From Pecten maximus (taxonomy: Eukaryota), in contig NC_047026.1 in assembly GCF_902652985.1 (NCBI RefSeq), forward strand, positions 19,778,001 through 19,842,000: a stretch of 64,000 bases of DNA, given 5' to 3'. The position numbers and the translations under genes were made by a program. Of the stretch, positions 929 through 11,483 are shown piece after piece. The first letter of the stretch is position 1. Every line of letters begins with the position of its first letter. Below the pieces are notes generated by a model, which saw only the letters and a list, made by a program, of their open reading frames with translations, made no database searches and was not told the DNA's origin.

Positions 929-2782
929 TATCAGTGTTCACTGTTCAACACTTTGAAAGTTCAACAAACCAATGTACGGGCTCCAACGCCACTTTGGCTA
1001 CTTGAAACGAATCACCGTTTCAAACAAAATTTGAATGACAAAAAAAACCCAGAACTTTTCATTAAAAGAAAACATTACGAAAAGTTCCGTTTTGAATGGC
1101 GTACGCATAAGGATTCCAAAACAACTACAGTTCCTTGTCAAATAACACAAAAATGGAAATTAGATAATGACATTGTTATCAAAATAAAATTTGAATTAAA
1201 CTCTTTCATCAAACAAACAGCGTGTTCCATTTAGCGGAACGTTCCGGTTGTGCCAACTTGGAACGGGTTCGCTAAATGGTACATGTGTAGTAGAAAAGGG
1301 ATTTCTGGCGAATAGGTGTCAATCCCGGATATAGCGGGTATGATTTTGTACTTCGCGTTGTGTTTAATTTTGTGATCTCATATGTCAGACACCCATTCCT
1401 CAATATCCCTCGTCCACAATGTTCTTTTATATCAGGCGGGAGATAAGAGAAATGAAAACTTGAGTCAGAAATAACAGTTCCAGTATTTAATAACATAACA
1501 AATCATCATCTGAAAACATAACAATTGTAAAGGTTGTTGCCATTGTAAAATATGGACAGCAGTAGTATCAAAAACTTTATCACAGAGACTAGTGTCCTTA
1601 AGTTTAACTTGTAATTATAGACATAATGTGATAGTAAACCAGTAAATACTACCTAAATAGTTCCTATATAATAACTTCCCCGAATAGCTGCATCCAGAGC
1701 TATACATAATTCTACTCTAGAAATTTATCTAGCTATTACTCCTCTATCTTCATTATATTCACCTTAGCAATTATATTTTAACCTAACACTGACAATATTC
1801 ATATATTTCTCCCATAAGCTCATAAAACTACCACCTTGCCACAGTGAAACTGCTGTCTCTAGTGTTAAACGGTCTATTACATTTCTACACAGGGGAAATA
1901 TATGAACTGTACTCAGTCCTGTGCTCCCTCAATACTATGGTAACTATAGACCTATTGTTTATAACATGTAAACACCCCTCAATCAGCTGTTCTGCTGTAA
2001 ATATCTTTGGTACTGTAAGTTGGCTACCAAGCCATAAACTCGTGCCGGCACGTGCTAACTCTATCCATACGCCTATACTGGGTCTCTCGAGCCATCCGGC
2101 CCTATACTAAAGTGGCAGCTAACCCATCCTTACCTGGACGTAGGTTACTGTTGACGAGCTGTCCAGCCCTGTCTGCCTCGTCTATACGGGAACACCGGCT
2201 TATATAAGCCGCGGTCCATTTTGATTGGCTACTGGTGTTGAGCTCAGCCAATGAGAAATCTGCACTATGTTTACATCCCGACACACGTTCCAACATCCGA
2301 GGCGAGGCACTGAAGAGGACGGACGTGTTTTTACTCATAGAGCTGAACAGTGAAGAAACTCTACACTGAATGAATGCCTACCAGACTACCAGACTTTTAT
2401 CGTCAAAGTGTTTGTAATAGCTCTACGGTGTATCAGAGCACAGCATTTAAATGCTGCCTTCCCTGTCTCTCTAGTCTTTATGCTTTTTTTAGCATTGAGT
2501 GCAAAATTTTTTTACGCGGCATTAGGCCGCCATCTTGTTTTTAACTTATTTTTATAACGCACTCGGCTTTTACCTAAGCTAACTGTCCGTCCTTTGCCCG
2601 CCTTTTTTATCATATATTCATTACATGTATCACTGTCAACACAGTGTATAATTATTTTATGCTTTTTATGATTTTTATATGTATTCTTGTGTTCATTATT
2701 GATTTTATCGTGCCCTGTACTATTATACAACCCCTAGTTAGAGTGAACCCCGTACGTGGAGACCCCAACTTTTCCTCACATT

Positions 2783-4912
2783 ATGGCTATGATAACCACT
2801 TCGGTGATAGACAGCTTAACAGTAACCTCCAATATTCCAGTACTCAACCACCCTGTTACAAGTACTACTTCCACAAGGAACTACGAACTGAATAAGATCA
2901 AGTCTCTTCAGAAAAAAAGAAATGCTTGCGAGAAACCATTCCTGAACATTATTCCAAAAGACTCTGGTAACCAAATAAAAATAGAGTGTAGTGCAGGATG
3001 TTATGAAATGCTAAAAACTGAAATCATCAAAGCATGCAATGGTAACTCCCCTATCTCTAAGTTTCAACTCTACCTAGAGCAAGAAAATGTTTATGACACA
3101 GCAGGTAACTCGCCTCAACTCACCATTAAAGCTTATAACAGGCTTACATCCGGCAACAAAGGAAAAAAACATAAAATTACAATAAATATGTATCATACAC
3201 AATGCTCCATCCTAGTTAATGGCCGATGCACAGTATTGTTCCATGACGACATCCTACCAGAAATCATAGAGATCATCAAAGAAAAACCAGGAATGTCGTT
3301 ACTTGATAAACAAATAGCTGCTCTAATTGATCGCTGCGTCACCACCAGTATCAAAAACCCTCAACTACAAACCAGTATCAGCGGACTAGACACAGAGGTC
3401 CATGTAGCCAATATCGTCTCATTTGACCCTAATATATGTCTACACTGCGATAGACAGGTTGACACAGGCATCGAATGTGATCAATGTAGAAAATGGTTTC
3501 ACTTTGAATGCGAAGCGTTTGATAGCGCCATGACATCATTCTACTCTAGAGGTGAACTCCCTTACAGCTGCCTATCCTGTAGGAACCTTACTACTCTTAC
3601 TCACTCCCAGGATGATTATGACAATGAACTATTTATTAGAATCCGAACAGATGAAGTCCCTTCTGCTGAACTAACTCAAATAGACCCCCTACAACCTAGT
3701 GATCACAATACCCAGCTTGTTGACACAAATTCTACAAGACTTCAACAGCCTACCTTGGAACTCCCAGTTACTATTACGGGACAATCAACAACTTTAAGCC
3801 CCACAAAAGTTTATACTCTTTCCCCAAGTAAGACACAACCTGCAACTTCAACTCTACATGCCGTTCCAGCTCAACCCTCACCCCTGCCTGCTACAGATTC
3901 GAAAATGAAATCTACAAAGCCTAAGCAAAAACCCGCCAGTAAGCTGCCAAATACCAACGAGCACATAGAACAACTTTCTTTTGCTAACCAGTTAATATCA
4001 AGACTTGAAACCAAGGTTAAAGATTTAGAAAACACTAACAGATTACTTCGTCTCCACAACATTGCAGACAAGAACCAGGACATAGGCACGACCTCCAACC
4101 AGCAACAAGGAAAGCCACATAGCGACATTCCTTTATACAACCAGGTTTTCTCTTTACAACACCAAGTTAAACAGCTCGAAATGGATTTGATAAGAACCAG
4201 AATTACAAACATTGAGCACCAGGTATCCAGAGCTCCATATAGTCAACCATACCAGCAGTTCTACCATCCTGTACAACACCCTATATGGCCTCCCGGACCT
4301 CCTTTACTGTACCAGAACATCCCACCTCCCTTTATCGGCTACGCTCCACAGTTACACCCATCTGGAATACCGTACCAACCAAGAATGCCACCACCGCCCC
4401 CTGCAGTACCAACCCAGCCACAATACAACCCACAACCAGCTTGTCAACCAAATGAAATAGTCACCCAGACAGCAAACCACCATACAAACCTGGATGAAAA
4501 CCGTTCCAATCCAATATCAAACAACACAAGGGAGAAGTATACCAACAGACCAAACAGAAAAAGATCCAACAGGCAAAGTAGGAAATCCCTGGTACACGAA
4601 AAGACCACAAACCAGCAGTATAACACCAATAACAGATTTCACTCTACTCCCAAGAAAGTAAAATATCAACTTGAAGATAGACAACTGAATATTGAAGAGG
4701 GAAACATCTCACACATCAAGAAACCGAAAACTTCTATATTTGATATGAACAGCACCAGCAGAGACAACTCTATTACAGACCACAGAGATGATGAACCAAC
4801 ATCTTCTGAAACCAACAAGCCTACAGATCCACCAACCAATAACCAGTCTTTTTTATACAAGGGCCGAGCCTCAACAGCAACGTGGAGGGGAAGAGCAAAT
4901 GCCTCCGTCTAG
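2783..4912 (+). CDS. LINE ORF1 protein with PHD finger, coiled coil and Pro/Gln-rich region
   Basis: First ATG is at 2783. C4HC3 PHD: CLHC...IECDQCRKWFHFEC...YSCLSC. Coiled coil: LISRLETKVKDLENTNRLLR. Confidence 0.85.
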   Translation: MAMITTSVIDSLTVTSNIPVLNHPVTSTTSTRNYELNKIKSLQKKRNACEKPFLNIIPKDSGNQIKIECSAGCYEMLKTEIIKACNGNSPISKFQLYLEQENVYDTAGNSPQLTIKAYNRLTSGNKGKKHKITINMYHTQCSILVNGRCTVLFHDDILPEIIEIIKEKPGMSLLDKQIAALIDRCVTTSIKNPQLQTSISGLDTEVHVANIVSFDPNICLHCDRQVDTGIECDQCRKWFHFECEAFDSAMTSFYSRGELPYSCLSCRNLTTLTHSQDDYDNELFIRIRTDEVPSAELTQIDPLQPSDHNTQLVDTNSTRLQQPTLELPVTITGQSTTLSPTKVYTLSPSKTQPATSTLHAVPAQPSPLPATDSKMKSTKPKQKPASKLPNTNEHIEQLSFANQLISRLETKVKDLENTNRLLRLHNIADKNQDIGTTSNQQQGKPHSDIPLYNQVFSLQHQVKQLEMDLIRTRITNIEHQVSRAPYSQPYQQFYHPVQHPIWPPGPPLLYQNIPPPFIGYAPQLHPSGIPYQPRMPPPPPAVPTQPQYNPQPACQPNEIVTQTANHHTNLDENRSNPISNNTREKYTNRPNRKRSNRQSRKSLVHEKTTNQQYNTNNRFHSTPKKVKYQLEDRQLNIEEGNISHIKKPKTSIFDMNSTSRDNSITDHRDDEPTSSETNKPTDPPTNNQSFLYKGRASTATWRGRANASV

Positions 4913-7900
4913 GCTCACTCAACGTAAAAAATGTGCAAAGTAATACAGTATTTGTACAGGAACTCTTGAATCACCTAGATATTTTATGCATACAAGAGCA
5001 CTGGCTCTTTGACTTTCAACTTCATACTTTAAGCAACCTATCAGCAAAACATGTACACCATGGAAAATCAGTTGACAGTATCGATCCTATCACTCCATAC
5101 CAGGTACCACGCGGATATGGTGGAGTAGCTATTTTATTCAATAAAAACCTAGATATAAAGATGAAGAAACATCCTGATGGGAACAACAGAATCACAGTTC
5201 TAGAGGTATTCTCAGATCCTCCCCTACTCATTTCTAATGTTTATATGCCATCTCGAGGGAACTCTACTAAGGCAGACTACCAAGCCACTCTAGACGAACT
5301 ACAAGAAATATTATTCAAATTCAGTAACACTCATGCAATCCTAGTTTCTGGAGATTTCAATGCTTCGCTGGCATCTGGGAGGGAGAATGACCGGGATGTA
5401 ATGCTACAGTCCTTCTGCAAACTTCATGATCTCTCAACCCTCCAGTCTGGCTCACCAACATTCTTCCATGTTAACGATATCCACAGTGCAGAGATAGACT
5501 ACATACTATTCAACAAACGTTGTGAACCTCTGGTACAGTCATGTAACGTTGGACATAAAGACCACCTCAACCTTTCGGACCATATACCTGTGGACGTATC
5601 CCTAAGACTATCCTTACAAGAAAGGAAAGGCACTACTACCATATACCCCAAGCCAAACTGGGACAAATGCGATACCCACGCATACAAGAACTTCATTAAC
5701 AGAAATCTGAGAGAACCACCCGAGGATCTTACCAACCAGACAGAGCTTGACATTTACAAACAAGTACAGCACCTCTGCGATACTCTTAACAAGGCAGGCC
5801 AATGCAGTATAGAGGGGTTCAAACCAAAAGTTACACTGAAAACCAAACGCATCAGAACATGGAGTGCGGAAATTCAAGAAGCGGTAAAAGGTACAAAGAA
5901 GGCAATGTGGAGCTGGAAACAAAATGGCAAACCCAGGAACAGGGATGATATACACTACTCTAACCTAAAACAACATAAAAGGAAACTACAAAAACTCCAA
6001 CGACAAGAATCCTCAAAACGCAGAAACCAACTTCACGAAGAAATTATGAACTCAGATGGAGACCCAAAACTATTTCATAAACTAGTCAGACAACAGCGCT
6101 CTACTACCAAGGAGCATATTAATGAACTTACTGTAAATGGTACAATTTTACAAGATAAGGAACAGATCCTACAAGGCTGGGCTGAGCACTTTGAAAATCT
6201 TGCAACTCCTTCAACAAATCCTGAGTTCAATGAAGAACACAAAGATAATATTAACACAGACCTATGTCTAATAGAGGAACTATGCTCATCTCAGCAGGGA
6301 TCCATTGAACCTATATCAACGGAAGAGATCTTTAAAGCAATCCGTAGGCTTAACTCTAACAAAGCTGCAGACATATTTGGCATCACTGGTGAACATTTGA
6401 AACATGCTCCAGAGTCAGCAGTCAGATTCCTCTATGCTATACTTAATACCATCATATACAAGAAGGAAATACCAAAAATACTAAAAGAAGGCATTGTATC
6501 GCCTGTATTCAAGAAAGGGGATGCTACAAACCCTTCGAACTACAGGGGTATCACAGTCACCACCATAATCCTCAAAATATTAGAGCATATACTCAATGCC
6601 AGGCATTCAAACATACTCAGTAAAGATCAATCTAAACTACAGACTGGCTTCACAAAGAGCACCTCATCCATTAATTCTGCACTTATAGTATCAGAATGCA
6701 TCAACCAAGCCAAGATAGACAAACGACGACTTCTGATGACTACGCTGGATGCACAGAAAGCCTTCGATGTCGTAGACCACAATATACTCCTTCATAAACT
6801 ATATTTCGATGGGATCCAAGGACACGACTGGCTCCTCATGAAAAACCTGTACTCCGAAGTCTCTTCCAGGGTAAAATGGCAAAGTGGCTTATCAGAACCC
6901 TTCCAAGTCAACCAGGGAGTTAGACAAGGAGGAATCCTCTCCACTTCCCACTACAAGAGATATAACAACTCACTCTTACTCAATTTGGAGGATAGATTTG
7001 AAGGGGCAACCATAGGCTCGATAGAAATACCACATACCACATGTGCAGACGACGTAGCCCTGCTGTCTCACGACCCAAAGGAACTACAGTGCATGATGGA
7101 CGTAGTGGAAAACTATGCAAGTGACTCAAGGTATACCATCAACCCGACAAAAAGCAATGTCCTGCAGTTCAACACAAAGGATGCAGATACTTTCCACATG
7201 TACTCCAAAGAAGTGAAAAATCCATCTGAAACAGAACACTTGGGGATAAAGAGAAACTTGGACAACGCCCTCAATGTCGACAGCAAAATCCAGCTAGCTC
7301 GTCGTACAACATACTCTTTGATGGGCTCCGGCCTCCATGGCAAGACGGGACTAAATCAACAGGTCAAGGCTAAACTGTGGAATACCTACGTCGTCCCACG
7401 ACTGCTATATGGTATGGAAATATTCAAAATCAACCAGACCAAGAAGAAACATCTGGAAACATACCAAAACAAAACCATAAAACAGATGCAGCACCTACCT
7501 GACAGAACAGCTACGTCCGCAGCATTAGGTCTATTGGGTATTATACCAATTGAAGCCGCTATTGACAAAAACATGATGAACTTATTCTTTAGACTTACTA
7601 ACAACCCAAATACAGTGGAATTCGATATTGCGCTACGACAGCTTGCAGTACATGATATCGATGCAAACAGCTGGTTCTCGCTGGTTAGAAGAACCCTCCA
7701 CAAATATGATCTTCCAAGCGCTTACAACATCATGACTGAACACAGGACAGAAGACTCCTGGAAATCACTGCTAAATCAAGCAATATGTAAGAAAATTGAA
7801 GCCACCTGGAAAGCAGATATAGAGGCAAAGCAAAGCCTAAAATACCTTAATCCAAATGCAGTGAGCATAAACAAGGTTCACCAGACATACAGATATGTCC

Positions 7901-8316
7901 ATGTCAACAGTCATGATATACACAGAGCAGAGGTCAAATCAAGGATAGTAACAGGTACCTACAATCTACAGTCAAATAAAGCAGTCTTCAACCAGTACGC
8001 CGTTAACCCAATTTGTAAACTCTGTCAACAAGCCCCAGAAACAAGACAACATTTCATAGCAGAATGCCACCAGTATAATCAGCAAAGAGATGCCGTCAAG
8101 AACAAACTCCAGCTCCTAGAGCCCATATCGAACTGTCCAAAACTCCTAGGGGATCCAGAGCTCTTTACACAACTCATTATAGACAGCTCTCATGAAGCAA
8201 TAAGCCATACTGTTGAGCTCAATGACAACGTTACATCAAGTATCGAGCTACACAGCCGGGAGTACTTATTCTCAATCCACCTATGCAGAAGTAAAAAAAT
8301 CCAGTTGACCAGCTGA
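4843..8316 (+). CDS. LINE ORF2: AP-like endonuclease, reverse transcriptase and C-terminal CCHC finger
   Basis: APE motifs SLNV, QEHW, GGVAI, NVYMP, GDFNA, IDYI, SDH. RT motifs NYRGITV, LDAQKAFD, GVRQGGILS, CADD, HLG. C-terminal CKLC..ETRQHFIAEC. The frame opens after the TAA at 4840-4842 and the first ATG is only at 5161. Confidence 0.97.
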   Translation, partial: PVFFIQGPSLNSNVEGKSKCLRLGSLNVKNVQSNTVFVQELLNHLDILCIQEHWLFDFQLHTLSNLSAKHVHHGKSVDSIDPITPYQVPRGYGGVAILFNKNLDIKMKKHPDGNNRITVLEVFSDPPLLISNVYMPSRGNSTKADYQATLDELQEILFKFSNTHAILVSGDFNASLASGRENDRDVMLQSFCKLHDLSTLQSGSPTFFHVNDIHSAEIDYILFNKRCEPLVQSCNVGHKDHLNLSDHIPVDVSLRLSLQERKGTTTIYPKPNWDKCDTHAYKNFINRNLREPPEDLTNQTELDIYKQVQHLCDTLNKAGQCSIEGFKPKVTLKTKRIRTWSAEIQEAVKGTKKAMWSWKQNGKPRNRDDIHYSNLKQHKRKLQKLQRQESSKRRNQLHEEIMNSDGDPKLFHKLVRQQRSTTKEHINELTVNGTILQDKEQILQGWAEHFENLATPSTNPEFNEEHKDNINTDLCLIEELCSSQQGSIEPISTEEIFKAIRRLNSNKAADIFGITGEHLKHAPESAVRFLYAILNTIIYKKEIPKILKEGIVSPVFKKGDATNPSNYRGITVTTIILKILEHILNARHSNILSKDQSKLQTGFTKSTSSINSALIVSECINQAKIDKRRLLMTTLDAQKAFDVVDHNILLHKLYFDGIQGHDWLLMKNLYSEVSSRVKWQSGLSEPFQVNQGVRQGGILSTSHYKRYNNSLLLNLEDRFEGATIGSIEIPHTTCADDVALLSHDPKELQCMMDVVENYASDSRYTINPTKSNVLQFNTKDADTFHMYSKEVKNPSETEHLGIKRNLDNALNVDSKIQLARRTTYSLMGSGLHGKTGLNQQVKAKLWNTYVVPRLLYGMEIFKINQTKKKHLETYQNKTIKQMQHLPDRTATSAALGLLGIIPIEAAIDKNMMNLFFRLTNNPNTVEFDIALRQLAVHDIDANSWFSLVRRTLHKYDLPSAYNIMTEHRTEDSWKSLLNQAICKKIEATWKADIEAKQSLKYLNPNAVSINKVHQTYRYVHVNSHDIHRAEVKSRIVTGTYNLQSNKAVFNQYAVNPICKLCQQAPETRQHFIAECHQYNQQRDAVKNKLQLLEPISNCPKLLGDPELFTQLIIDSSHEAISHTVELNDNVTSSIELHSREYLFSIHLCRSKKIQLTS

Positions 8317-8869
8317 ATTAGTAGGGGTCTCCACAACCCAATTGGTTCTACTCAAATACTAATACTGATAGAGTTAAGATTAAACTCTTTTTATCCCTTT
8401 TAATTATTTTTAAATATTTTAAAAATTTTTTTTAAACAAACGATCCCCAAACCCTTATCACCACAAAGACTATGAACATTGAATGAACTGTGTGTACATA
8501 TTGTATATAGTTGCCGCAAACTGCAAGGATATCACTACGCCCTGGAAATAGTGCCTTACTCTACGCTCATCGAAGCGGTGCCTCGGAAAGTCATCGAGGG
8601 TATCTACGACACAACAACAACAACATGGCTGCCTGAGAGCGAAAATACGACCTAACGGAATAACAGAGGCGCTATATCTATCCTGTAACAGCGAACGCCG
8701 TCGTACAAAATGCATACAACTTTTCTAAAGCTGGTAGTTATATCAAACCATCATATTACCGCTGTTCTGATGTAATAAATCCCCCTAACTAGCTACGTAT
8801 AAACACATCTATTACCCGACTCGACTACACATGACGTTCCAATCACGTTCTGTGCACGCGAAATCCAAC

Positions 8870-9236
8870 ATGGCGGACTTGACCATGATTGCGTCAGCGT
8901 CCTATACGTTTTTGTCGTTTTTCAACGAGGACGAAGACGATACTGTAGAAACAGTAGCGGCGGTTTGTACAAAAAGAAACGAACGTACCCGAATTCCTTT
9001 TTATGTAGAGACTATTGTCAAATATTATGAAGAACAGGAGCTCGAGTTTCATTCACATTTCAGAATGACCAGGAGTTTTTTTGAAATCTTAATAACTTAG
9101 ATCTTATTCATGGCACTGGTAAAGTGCCTGTCTATCATGAGCAGGGCTGTAAGCCCATATCTATTGAAAAGTAAGTTTTGGTAACCATATGTTAGCCAAT
9201 AAAGATTCACATAGAGAGATAATAGCAGACCGTTTC
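8870..9236 (+). pseudogene. N-terminal fragment of a PIF/Harbinger (HARBI1-like) transposase
   Basis: FHSHFRMTRSFFEIL, followed across stops and frameshifts by PISIEK*VLVT..LANKDSHRE..IADRF, matching the Harbinger HTH region. Truncated before the DDE domain. Confidence 0.7.
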
Positions 9237-9326: not shown

Positions 9327-9389
9327 TTCCCCCCTGCTTATAAATACCTCCGTGAAGTTGATTACTTATTCCTTATTCCTTATTCCATT

Positions 9390-10815
9390 ACTTATTCGTT
9401 TACTCTTTACTAATAAACACTTTAAATGGTTCAAAACTAATTATTAAGCAATCCCATCATCCAGTCGACCATTTCATTCCTTATCCATACCTAGTTTCTT
9501 CTTCAATTCCTTCATTACTTATTCGAATTTCTCATTACTTATTCGATTCCTTCATTACTTATTCGATTTCTCTTCAATAATGAATACTTAAAATGGTTCA
9601 AAACTAATCATTACGCATTCCCATCATCCAGTCGACCATTTCATTCCTTATCCATACCTAGTTTCTTCTTCAATTCCTTCATTACTTATTCGAATTTCTC
9701 ATTACTTATTCGATTCCTTCATTACTTATTCGATTTCTCTTCAATAATGAATACTTAAAATGGTTCAAAACTAATCATTACGCATTCCCATCATCCAGTC
9801 GACCATTTCATTCCTTATCCATACCTAGTTTCTTCTTCAATTCCTTCATTACTTATTCGAATTTCTCATTACTTATTCGATTCCTTCATTACTTATTCGA
9901 TTTCTCTTCAATAATGAACACTTAAAATGGTTCAAAACTAATCATTACGCATTCCCATCATCCAGTCGACCATTTCATTCCTAATCCATACCTAGTTTCT
10001 TCTTCAATTCCTTCATTACTTATTCGAATTTCTCATTACTTATTCGATTTCTCTTCAATAATGAACACTTTAAATGGTTCAAAACTAATCATTACGCATT
10101 CCCATCATCCAGTCGACCATTTCATTCCTTATCCATACCTAGTTTCTTCTTCAATTCCTTCATTACTTATTCGAATTTCTCATTACTTATTCGATTCCTT
10201 CATTACTTATTCGATTTCTCTTCAATAATGAACACTTAAAATGGTTCAAAACTAATCATTACGCATTCCCATCATCCAGTCGACCATTTCATTCCTTATC
10301 CATACCTAGTTTCTTCTTCAATTCCTTCATTACTTATTCGAATTTCTCATTACTTATTCGATTTCTCTTCAATAATGAACACTTTAAATGGTTCAAAACT
10401 AATCATTACGCATTCCCATCATCCAGTCGACCATTTCATTCCTTATCCATACCTAGTTTCTTCTTCAATTCCTTCATTACTTATTCGAATTTCTCATTAC
10501 TTATTCGATTCATTCATTACTTATTCGATTTCTCTTCAATAATGAACACTTAAAATGGTTCAAAACTAATTATCACGCATTCCCATCATCCAGTCGACCA
10601 TTTCATTCCTTATCAATACCTAGTTTCTTCTTCAATTCCTTCATTACTTATTCGAATTTCTCATTACTTATTCGATTTCTCTTCAATAATGAACACTTTA
10701 AATGATTCAAAACTAATCATTACGCATTCCCATCATCCAGTCGACCATTTCATTCCTTATCCATACCTAGTTTCTTCTTCAATTCCTTCATTACTTATTC
10801 GATGCTCCCATTACT
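9390..10815 (+). repeat. Left-arm tandem array of the foldback element (167/147-bp units built from ~20-bp cattacttattcga subrepeats)
   Basis: Anchor aaatggttcaaaac at 9424, 9591, 9758, 9925, 10072, 10239, 10386, 10553, and a variant at 10700. Confidence 0.95.
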
Positions 10816-11483
10816 TGTGTTATCAAAATATTTATGTCTTGTATATTATTGGCATAGCATCTTTTTGTATAGAGTCTTAAAAAATACCATTTCAATAAAC
10901 GCCTGAGTCCTTGCATGTTTAGGTATAAACATTAAATAACATATGTTGTTTCCATATTTTCCGTATACAATACAATATTTGTGTGTTCTTTGACTAGTAA
11001 TTAATATTTTTAGGGTTTCTTAATGATGTTGGAACGTTGTTGACATGATAATTACCTGCTAGTTAAGGTTTTCAATATCTATTAAATTTTGCTGTACCAA
11101 ACAAAACAAAACAAAACAAAAGAAAAAAACACATGAAATTACATTAGATACATAAGCTAGATATTTAATTTACCGCTCAAATATTTAATAATGATATTTG
11201 ATGTATATGCAAACATTTGCTAAAAAGCATGCGCTATCGCCACATCGCTTTTACTTTCGCCGCTATTTTCTTTTATAGCTTTTATTTAACTATTCATACA
11301 ATCTCGGATAACAATAGGCCTTCGGCCAAGGTTAAGGGACCATTAACACAATCATACCAACTGTGTTCGTTGTTTATTTACTAAACTTGTGTTACTGTTC
11401 CATATTCTATGTCTATATGTGCACTTTTTTTTAACAAACACGTACCCGTGGCTTGATCAGATTGCTCAAACGGTCCATATTTA

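Follow-up and report, generated by a model that had tools for sequence, protein, structure and literature searches.

The 64,000-nucleotide (nt) stretch of Pecten maximus DNA analysed here (contig NC_047026.1, positions 19,778,001 to 19,842,000 of the forward strand; called the window, to which all positions refer) contains an intact long interspersed nuclear element (LINE) of the apurinic/apyrimidinic endonuclease-reverse transcriptase (APE-RT) type, which belongs to a young family, possesses two open reading frames (ORFs) and occupies 6.3 kb of the plus strand from 2301 to 8623. APE and RT domains in ORF2, a simple-repeat tail and 5'-truncated copies were found, as expected for an autonomous APE-type retrotransposon lacking long terminal repeats (non-LTR). 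The ORF1 frame is open from 2747 to 4912, with its first ATG at 2783, and the ORF2 frame, open from 4843 to 8316, lies one base back (-1) from it, with an overlap from 4843 to 4912. The first in-frame ATG of the ORF2 frame occurs at 5161, downstream of the endonuclease motifs LNV and QEH, and a heptamer T TTT TTA is located at 4849-4855 in the phase of ORF1. An earlier note on this DNA had described this arrangement, which was confirmed in every coordinate, and had proposed that a frameshift signal of the type known from human immunodeficiency virus type 1 (HIV-1) generates a retrovirus-style fusion protein. From the comparison of relatives described below, we consider it probable (about 80%) that the ORF2 protein is made by a programmed -1 frameshift at U_UUU_UUA (4849-4855), leading to a predicted ORF1-ORF2 fusion of 691 + 1153 residues, about 1,840 in all.

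Relatives were collected by searching the genome of P. maximus with the endonuclease, which yielded 50 loci, with a further 12 obtained by a pattern search, and from metagenome contigs, of which the best 80 of 121 confirmed loci were used. From these 142 loci, 27 were dropped because they gave no match, their endonuclease start was unaligned, a stop lay near the start or fewer than 200 nt were available upstream, and the remaining 115 formed 83 families at 80% nucleotide identity. A midpoint-rooted tree of the endonuclease separated clade A (58 families, including that of the window) from an outgroup B (25 families) with a support of 0.998; the clades were cut from this tree and the heptamer played no part in it. 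The same A/B split was obtained in an RT tree of the 32 sequences extending into this domain. The pattern search contributed no counted family, sampling favours clade A, from which the metagenome query was built, and loci from two additional searches of the same genome were mostly repeats and were kept out of the counts. No relatives were found in viral contigs. The locus set and a set of ORF1 proteins used in parallel may partly overlap and, due to shared ancestry, p-values overstate independence.

An in-phase TTTTTT[AG] 5' of the endonuclease was present in 41 of the 58 clade A families and in none of the 25 families of outgroup B, whereas an in-frame ATG 5' of the endonuclease was found in 23 of 25 outgroup families versus 19 of 58 in clade A. 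The earlier note had held that its proposal would lose ground if the heptamer were not conserved in relatives; it is conserved in these 41 families, although their endonucleases share a median identity of only 33%. Where the ORF1 frame encodes Phe-Leu at the junction, the letters are T TTT TTA in 40 of 45 cases, compared with 1 of 59 cases within the bodies of the ORFs, and codon use predicts a share of 1.4%. The T run counts exactly six in 39 of 41 families, and a G often follows the heptamer (28/41). In the set of long ORF1 relatives, Phe-Leu occurs within the last 50 residues in 30 of 57 proteins, with 5-6% expected. Clearly, stops in the ORF2 frame are frequent just 5' of the heptamer (62 of 820 codons) and absent from the heptamer to the endonuclease (0 of 1099 codons, 287 of which are open by the filter used); in the clade, the ORF2 frame thus opens at the heptamer. 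The heptamer is far beyond chance when relatives are counted and is kept at the nucleotide level beyond the need of the protein.

Two explanations that dispense with ribosomal slipping bear directly on these counts. In the first, Phe-Leu-x-x-Gly-Arg-Ala would merely be a conserved C-terminal peptide of ORF1 and the heptamer its by-product. The ORF1 tail is indeed conserved at the peptide level with silent changes (GRAS, TNHE and PP motifs), but TTT, TTA and the preceding wobble T would not become fixed by selection on a peptide, which would also leave ORF2 without a means of production; we regard this explanation as extremely improbable and, on the codon counts, largely refuted, being excluded for the heptamer while it remains for the ten codons after it. 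In the second, RNA polymerase would slip on the T run and add a base, and ordinary translation would then give nearly the same fusion. The run sits at the very point at which an inserted base would bring the two frames together; however, it measures six T, when cited bacterial cases use runs of 9 (PMC5009743, excerpt), and conservation extends to the final A and to the codon phase, features relevant to tRNAs and not to a polymerase. Also, no insertion or deletion at the run was seen in contigs or in the five long genomic copies, though slipped RNAs would be copied back, and polymerase slippage therefore appears very improbable.

Alternatively, ORF2 might be started separately, by reinitiation past the ORF1 stop or at a near-cognate codon, with the heptamer serving some other purpose. 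This is the route of SART1, which reportedly uses translational coupling for ORF2, and of L1, for which unusual initiation of ORF2 has been suggested (PMC5009743, excerpt). An in-frame GTG at 4882-4884 (aacGTGg), overlooked by the earlier note, opens a 1144-codon frame containing the entire endonuclease and is replaced by ATG in one of the five long copies and in one contig of an RNA run; ORF1 stops also cluster close to the first endonuclease strand. Yet this GTG is absent from two sister families of the same genome, and the G-to-A change, which falls at a CpG, leaves the ORF1 protein unaltered. Ahead of the first endonuclease strand, an in-frame ATG occurs in only 10 of the 41 heptamer families, and its position varies, so that 31 lack one. 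Since a separate start leaves both the fixed codons and the openness of the ORF2 frame from the heptamer onwards unexplained, we consider it improbable.

The T run might also be the pyrimidine tract of a 3' splice acceptor, with ORF2 being read from spliced RNA. In agreement with this, TTTTTTAG is read in 28 of 41 families and, by hand count, 37 of 41 share a single phase for the first AG, but in the window element the first AG falls in another phase, and the tract consists of six T without admixture of C in a single codon phase throughout. Contigs from four sequencing runs, only one of which is recorded as RNA, span the site unspliced, bearing in mind that contigs hide rare forms, and the sole joint in contigs corresponds to a 422-nt deletion that is also present as a genomic copy. 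ORF1 is joined to the junction in all five long genomic copies, and cis preference would spread spliced copies. A mixed tract of free phase, spliced RNA joints and intronless copies, the marks of a 3' splice acceptor, were not found, the RNA side being represented by contigs. Splicing is thus highly improbable, and the -1 frameshift is the reading that we follow below.

Among intact-looking clade A families, 27 of 32 carry the heptamer. L104 and L106 have an in-phase A AAA AAC in place of T TTT TTA, which is a strong -1 site (PMC5009743, excerpt). In L108 the junction reads T TTT CGG. A T TTT CG[GT] (Phe-Arg) was noted in two lineages of the clade (L108; L010, L011, L024 and L025) and is a possible variant shift site. 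In L119, the ORF2 frame is open for at least 528 codons, followed by TAG CAA TTA and then by an intact ATG-less ORF2, with the TAG 87 nt 5' of the endonuclease start. We take TAG CAA TTA to be the readthrough context of tobacco mosaic virus; neither of the two reviews searched contained a motif of this type. Upstream of the TAG, the frame of L119 resembles an ORF1 tail, a BLAST comparison with ORF1 relatives gave no match, and this lineage seems to have exchanged frameshifting for readthrough of a stop. In L115, a shorter open frame precedes an in-frame TAG. A AAA AAC, T TTT CGG or an in-frame TAG would all yield a fusion, and these exceptions suggest that it is the fusion, rather than the heptamer as such, that is retained. 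L209 has ORF1 and the endonuclease in one frame, but little weight was given to this decayed copy, whose sister L007 is broken upstream.

With regard to what might stimulate a shift, the earlier note had described a GC-rich stem following the heptamer. Its four segments exist, and gagcct (4866-4871), ggagg (4884-4888), cctcc (4902-4906) and aggctc (4911-4916) do pair in the minimum-energy fold of 4856-4920. However, the stem is no better than shuffles (z = -0.28 and -0.08), and its 11 pairs were formed in 52% of the cells of an alignment of 8 sequences versus 50% in shuffles, with no covariation. It would begin 10 nt past the heptamer, outside the usual spacing of 5-9 nt (PMC5009743, excerpt). 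This stem-loop was rejected, and an HIV-style 3' structure is not supported. Of the interpretation in the earlier note, comparison with relatives thus strongly supports the putative -1 slip at U_UUU_UUA and the predicted fusion product, though not the structure. The structure tests covered nested folds and the pairs of the earlier note, with no dedicated search for pseudoknots.

Two other features were found downstream. The motif GGCC occurs at +4 to +17 from the heptamer in 21 of 41 families, in several codon phases, versus 2.0% of control windows. Furthermore, the zero-frame stop lies at least 10 codons past the heptamer in 41 of 41 loci, where 17 would be expected closer, and in 30 of 30 proteins. 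Against an expectation of about 2, 10 of 41 loci have it exactly 10 codons away, as do both A AAA AAC families, distributed over 11 separate tree clusters. When a stop, Pro-Pro or Trp at about the tenth codon is considered, 42 of 71 cases show one versus 2.3% upstream, the window having Trp. Queued ribosomes are spaced about ten to eleven codons apart and Pro-Pro motifs are known pause sites, and because the spacing matches, a queue of ribosomes is a candidate stimulator. It is the stimulator we prefer, doubtful as it is; the alternatives are a single-stranded GGCC element, bare slipping at a low rate and structures specific to individual lineages.

In the proposed mechanism, most ribosomes would end ORF1 at 4912, and in a minority the Phe and Leu tRNAs on UUU UUA would re-pair one base back, these ribosomes continuing through the endonuclease and the RT. 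Conserved RNA structure would have no part in driving the slip. Instead, an unshifted ribosome would pause about 10 codons downstream at the stop, Pro-Pro or Trp, and the next ribosome would be held on the heptamer. That a whole clade of marine-invertebrate LINEs makes a Gag-Pol-like fusion by structure-free -1 frameshifting with a ribosome queue as stimulator is a still more tentative proposal, and as a whole it is unlikely.

Several points weigh against frameshifting or against the queue. The families that support the putative -1 slip are related by descent, so that the counts are not independent events. The heptamer is missing from 17 of 58 clade families, 12 of which are not intact-looking. 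The GTG at 4882 stands in a good context and is an ATG in one copy. Of the classical -1 cassette, the sequence X_XXY_YYZ in the phase of the upstream ORF, a -1 ORF without its own start and conservation at the nucleotide level were found, but a conserved stem-loop or pseudoknot 5-9 nt downstream was not, the search not having been dedicated to pseudoknots. Folds of the 70 nt downstream gave a mean z of +0.15 over the 41 families, with none below -2. Likewise, no pairing between the segment downstream of the slip site and the 3' tip was found in 9 elements, the best element being equalled by 2 of 30 control segments and that of the window by 8 of 30. With neither conserved structure nor 3'-tip pairing, the classical frameshift cassette is incomplete. 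The stop, Pro-Pro or Trp feature was defined post hoc and is absent in 29 of 71 cases, and an equally open reading is that it could be part of a conserved ORF1 tail peptide.

Compared to HIV-1 gag-pol, the window element has the same heptamer U_UUU_UUA in the same phase, an upstream structural ORF and an enzyme ORF in the -1 frame; for the HIV-1 site a mixed Leu/Phe product has been described (PMC5009743, excerpt). In contrast to HIV-1, it is a non-LTR element without protease and without a conserved 3' stem-loop, and its shift is a predicted one. A -1 frameshift in LINEs is not without precedent, since according to a review TRE5-A and TRE3-A of Dictyostelium require one for ORF2 (PMC5911963, excerpt). 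These too are two-ORF LINEs with APE, RT and zinc finger, but from another lineage and host group; the site described here is kept in dozens of diverged families. Mammalian L1 has the same order of domains in ORF2, and L1 ORF2p is the best match in the PDB; the L1 ORFs do not overlap (PMC5009743, excerpt). That excerpt mentions mammalian LINEs, HeT-A and TART without naming a conserved site of this kind, and excerpts of PMC5753468, PMC5006619, PMC11797035, PMC1925062 and PMC1965478 contained nothing on this clade. Among the literature matches listed, no paper reported a conserved slippery site in it; Repbase entries and subscription journals, which may mention the overlap, lay outside this search. 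Stalled leading ribosomes reportedly raise the slipping of trailing ones (mutant thymidine kinase of herpes simplex virus; Smith et al., 2019; both as cited in an excerpt of PMC8310308). The thymidine kinase case concerns a mutant non-stop message and the other study bacterial mRNAs, whereas the window clade would have evolved its ten-codon spacing.

With respect to classification, all six bivalve RTs with the motif GG[IV]LSTHLYK that were looked up are labelled Proto2, a group of the RTE superfamily with a similar length (mean 5.7 kb; Martelossi et al., 2023, PMC10294476, excerpt). L104 and L106 carry this motif; the window reads GGILSTSHYK, which in its exact form is not in the excerpted alignment of that paper. 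Membership in Proto2 is therefore likely, as judged from a motif look-up. The word 'frameshift' does not occur in the main text of PMC10294476. No heptamer junctions were found in the small part of the published bivalve library covered (354,000 + 377,000 characters of 2.5 + 4.1 MB), which is uninformative.

Features of the Pecten maximus LINE, all in window positions
Feature	Positions	Strand	Basis or remark
Full-length two-ORF LINE	2301-8623	+	Ends from four other long copies and 3' ends
5' untranslated region with 8 upstream ATG triplets	2301-2782	+	Boundary from copies; list of ATGs
ORF1, 709 aa from ATG 2783, stop TAG 4910-4912	2783-4912	+	273 relatives at E <= 0.001
Weak PHD-like finger in ORF1	3428-3580	+	Pfam zf-HC5HC2H and PHD, E about 0.002, under the Pfam cut-off
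TAA six bases before the heptamer, closing the ORF2 frame	4840-4842	+	Such a stop within 60 nt in 30/41 families
ORF2 frame, 1157 codons, no ATG before 5161	4843-8316	+	ORF scan
Predicted -1 shift site, the slippery heptamer T TTT TTA in phase with ORF1	4849-4855	+	Sequence and relatives
GGCC motif 6 nt past the heptamer, candidate stimulator	4862-4865	+	Recurs in 21/41 families
Stem-loop of the earlier note; can form, not conserved, no better than shuffles	4866-4916	+	Folding and alignment
In-frame GTG of the ORF2 frame, rival start, not conserved	4882-4884	+	ATG in one copy
Trp codon, tenth ORF1 codon past the heptamer	4883-4885	+	Stop, Pro-Pro or Trp about there in relatives
APE-type endonuclease domain	4930-5583	+	Pfam Exo_endo_phos, E 1e-12; best PDB match L1 ORF2p
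RT domain	6511-7182	+	Pfam RVT_1, E 2e-25
Weak C-terminal zinc-binding motif	7993-8076	+	Pfam zf-RVT, E 5e-4, under cut-off
3' untranslated region with terminal (CAA)4 tail	8317-8623	+	Comparison of copies

The four other long genomic copies are 99.5-99.7% identical to the window element, and three of them begin at 2300-2302. Also, 12 near-identical 3' ends are present in the genome, several of which belong to 5'-truncated copies. By this sequence identity, the family is young and apparently was recently active. Directly after the (CAA)n tail, 10 of 12 copies continue with ATGGC, mostly CATGGC (window 8624-8629; loci L210-L221), and other clade families with different tails (L087, L089, L091, L108 and L202) also precede [AT]TGG, which suggests a clade-wide target motif as insertion-site preference. 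The 5' tip (2303-2312) can pair with 8576-8585 near the 3' tip over 10 bp, including one G-U (-17.3 kcal/mol). The copy L207 (G000:C6:26776500-26784000) has an intact ORF1 and a 422-nt deletion corresponding to window 4934-5355, which removes most of the endonuclease and leaves a 988-codon RT frame that is in the ORF1 frame and has an ATG six codons past the ORF1 stop; the deletion joint was present in contigs from three of four sequencing runs.

Residues 20-200 of ORF1 (window 2840-3382) form a conserved N-terminal domain without a Pfam family. In the ESM Atlas this domain resembled unnamed, mostly mollusc clusters (0.87), none reaching 0.9, and weakly clusters of the RnlA N-terminal domain (0.84 and 0.76), which is a lead only. 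The named protein relatives come from bivalves or from bacterial bins, and many ORF2 relatives (P0003, P0004, P0024, P0028 and others) are deposited under bins of bacterial symbionts (Sedimenticola, Thiodiazotropha), which are likely to contain host DNA. Just past the element, a short ORF at 8789-9100 presumably resembles the start of a Harbinger-type transposase, and an imperfect tandem repeat with a strong negative GC skew extends over about 9340-10880.

How ORF2 of LINEs is translated is a long-standing open question, to which this clade offers a precise, testable answer. The evidence combines one conserved heptamer, lineages in which a different heptamer or a leaky stop apparently took its place, and an outgroup with an ATG. 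A fusion of ORF1 and ORF2 is predicted here, whereas L1 makes two separate proteins. If ORF2 is reached by a -1 frameshift, this would account for the ragged, truncated ORF2 starts obtained from gene callers. Given the lack of a conserved structure, an unusual stimulator may act at this site, and the ten-codon rule allows a direct test of a -1 frameshift driven by ribosome collision.

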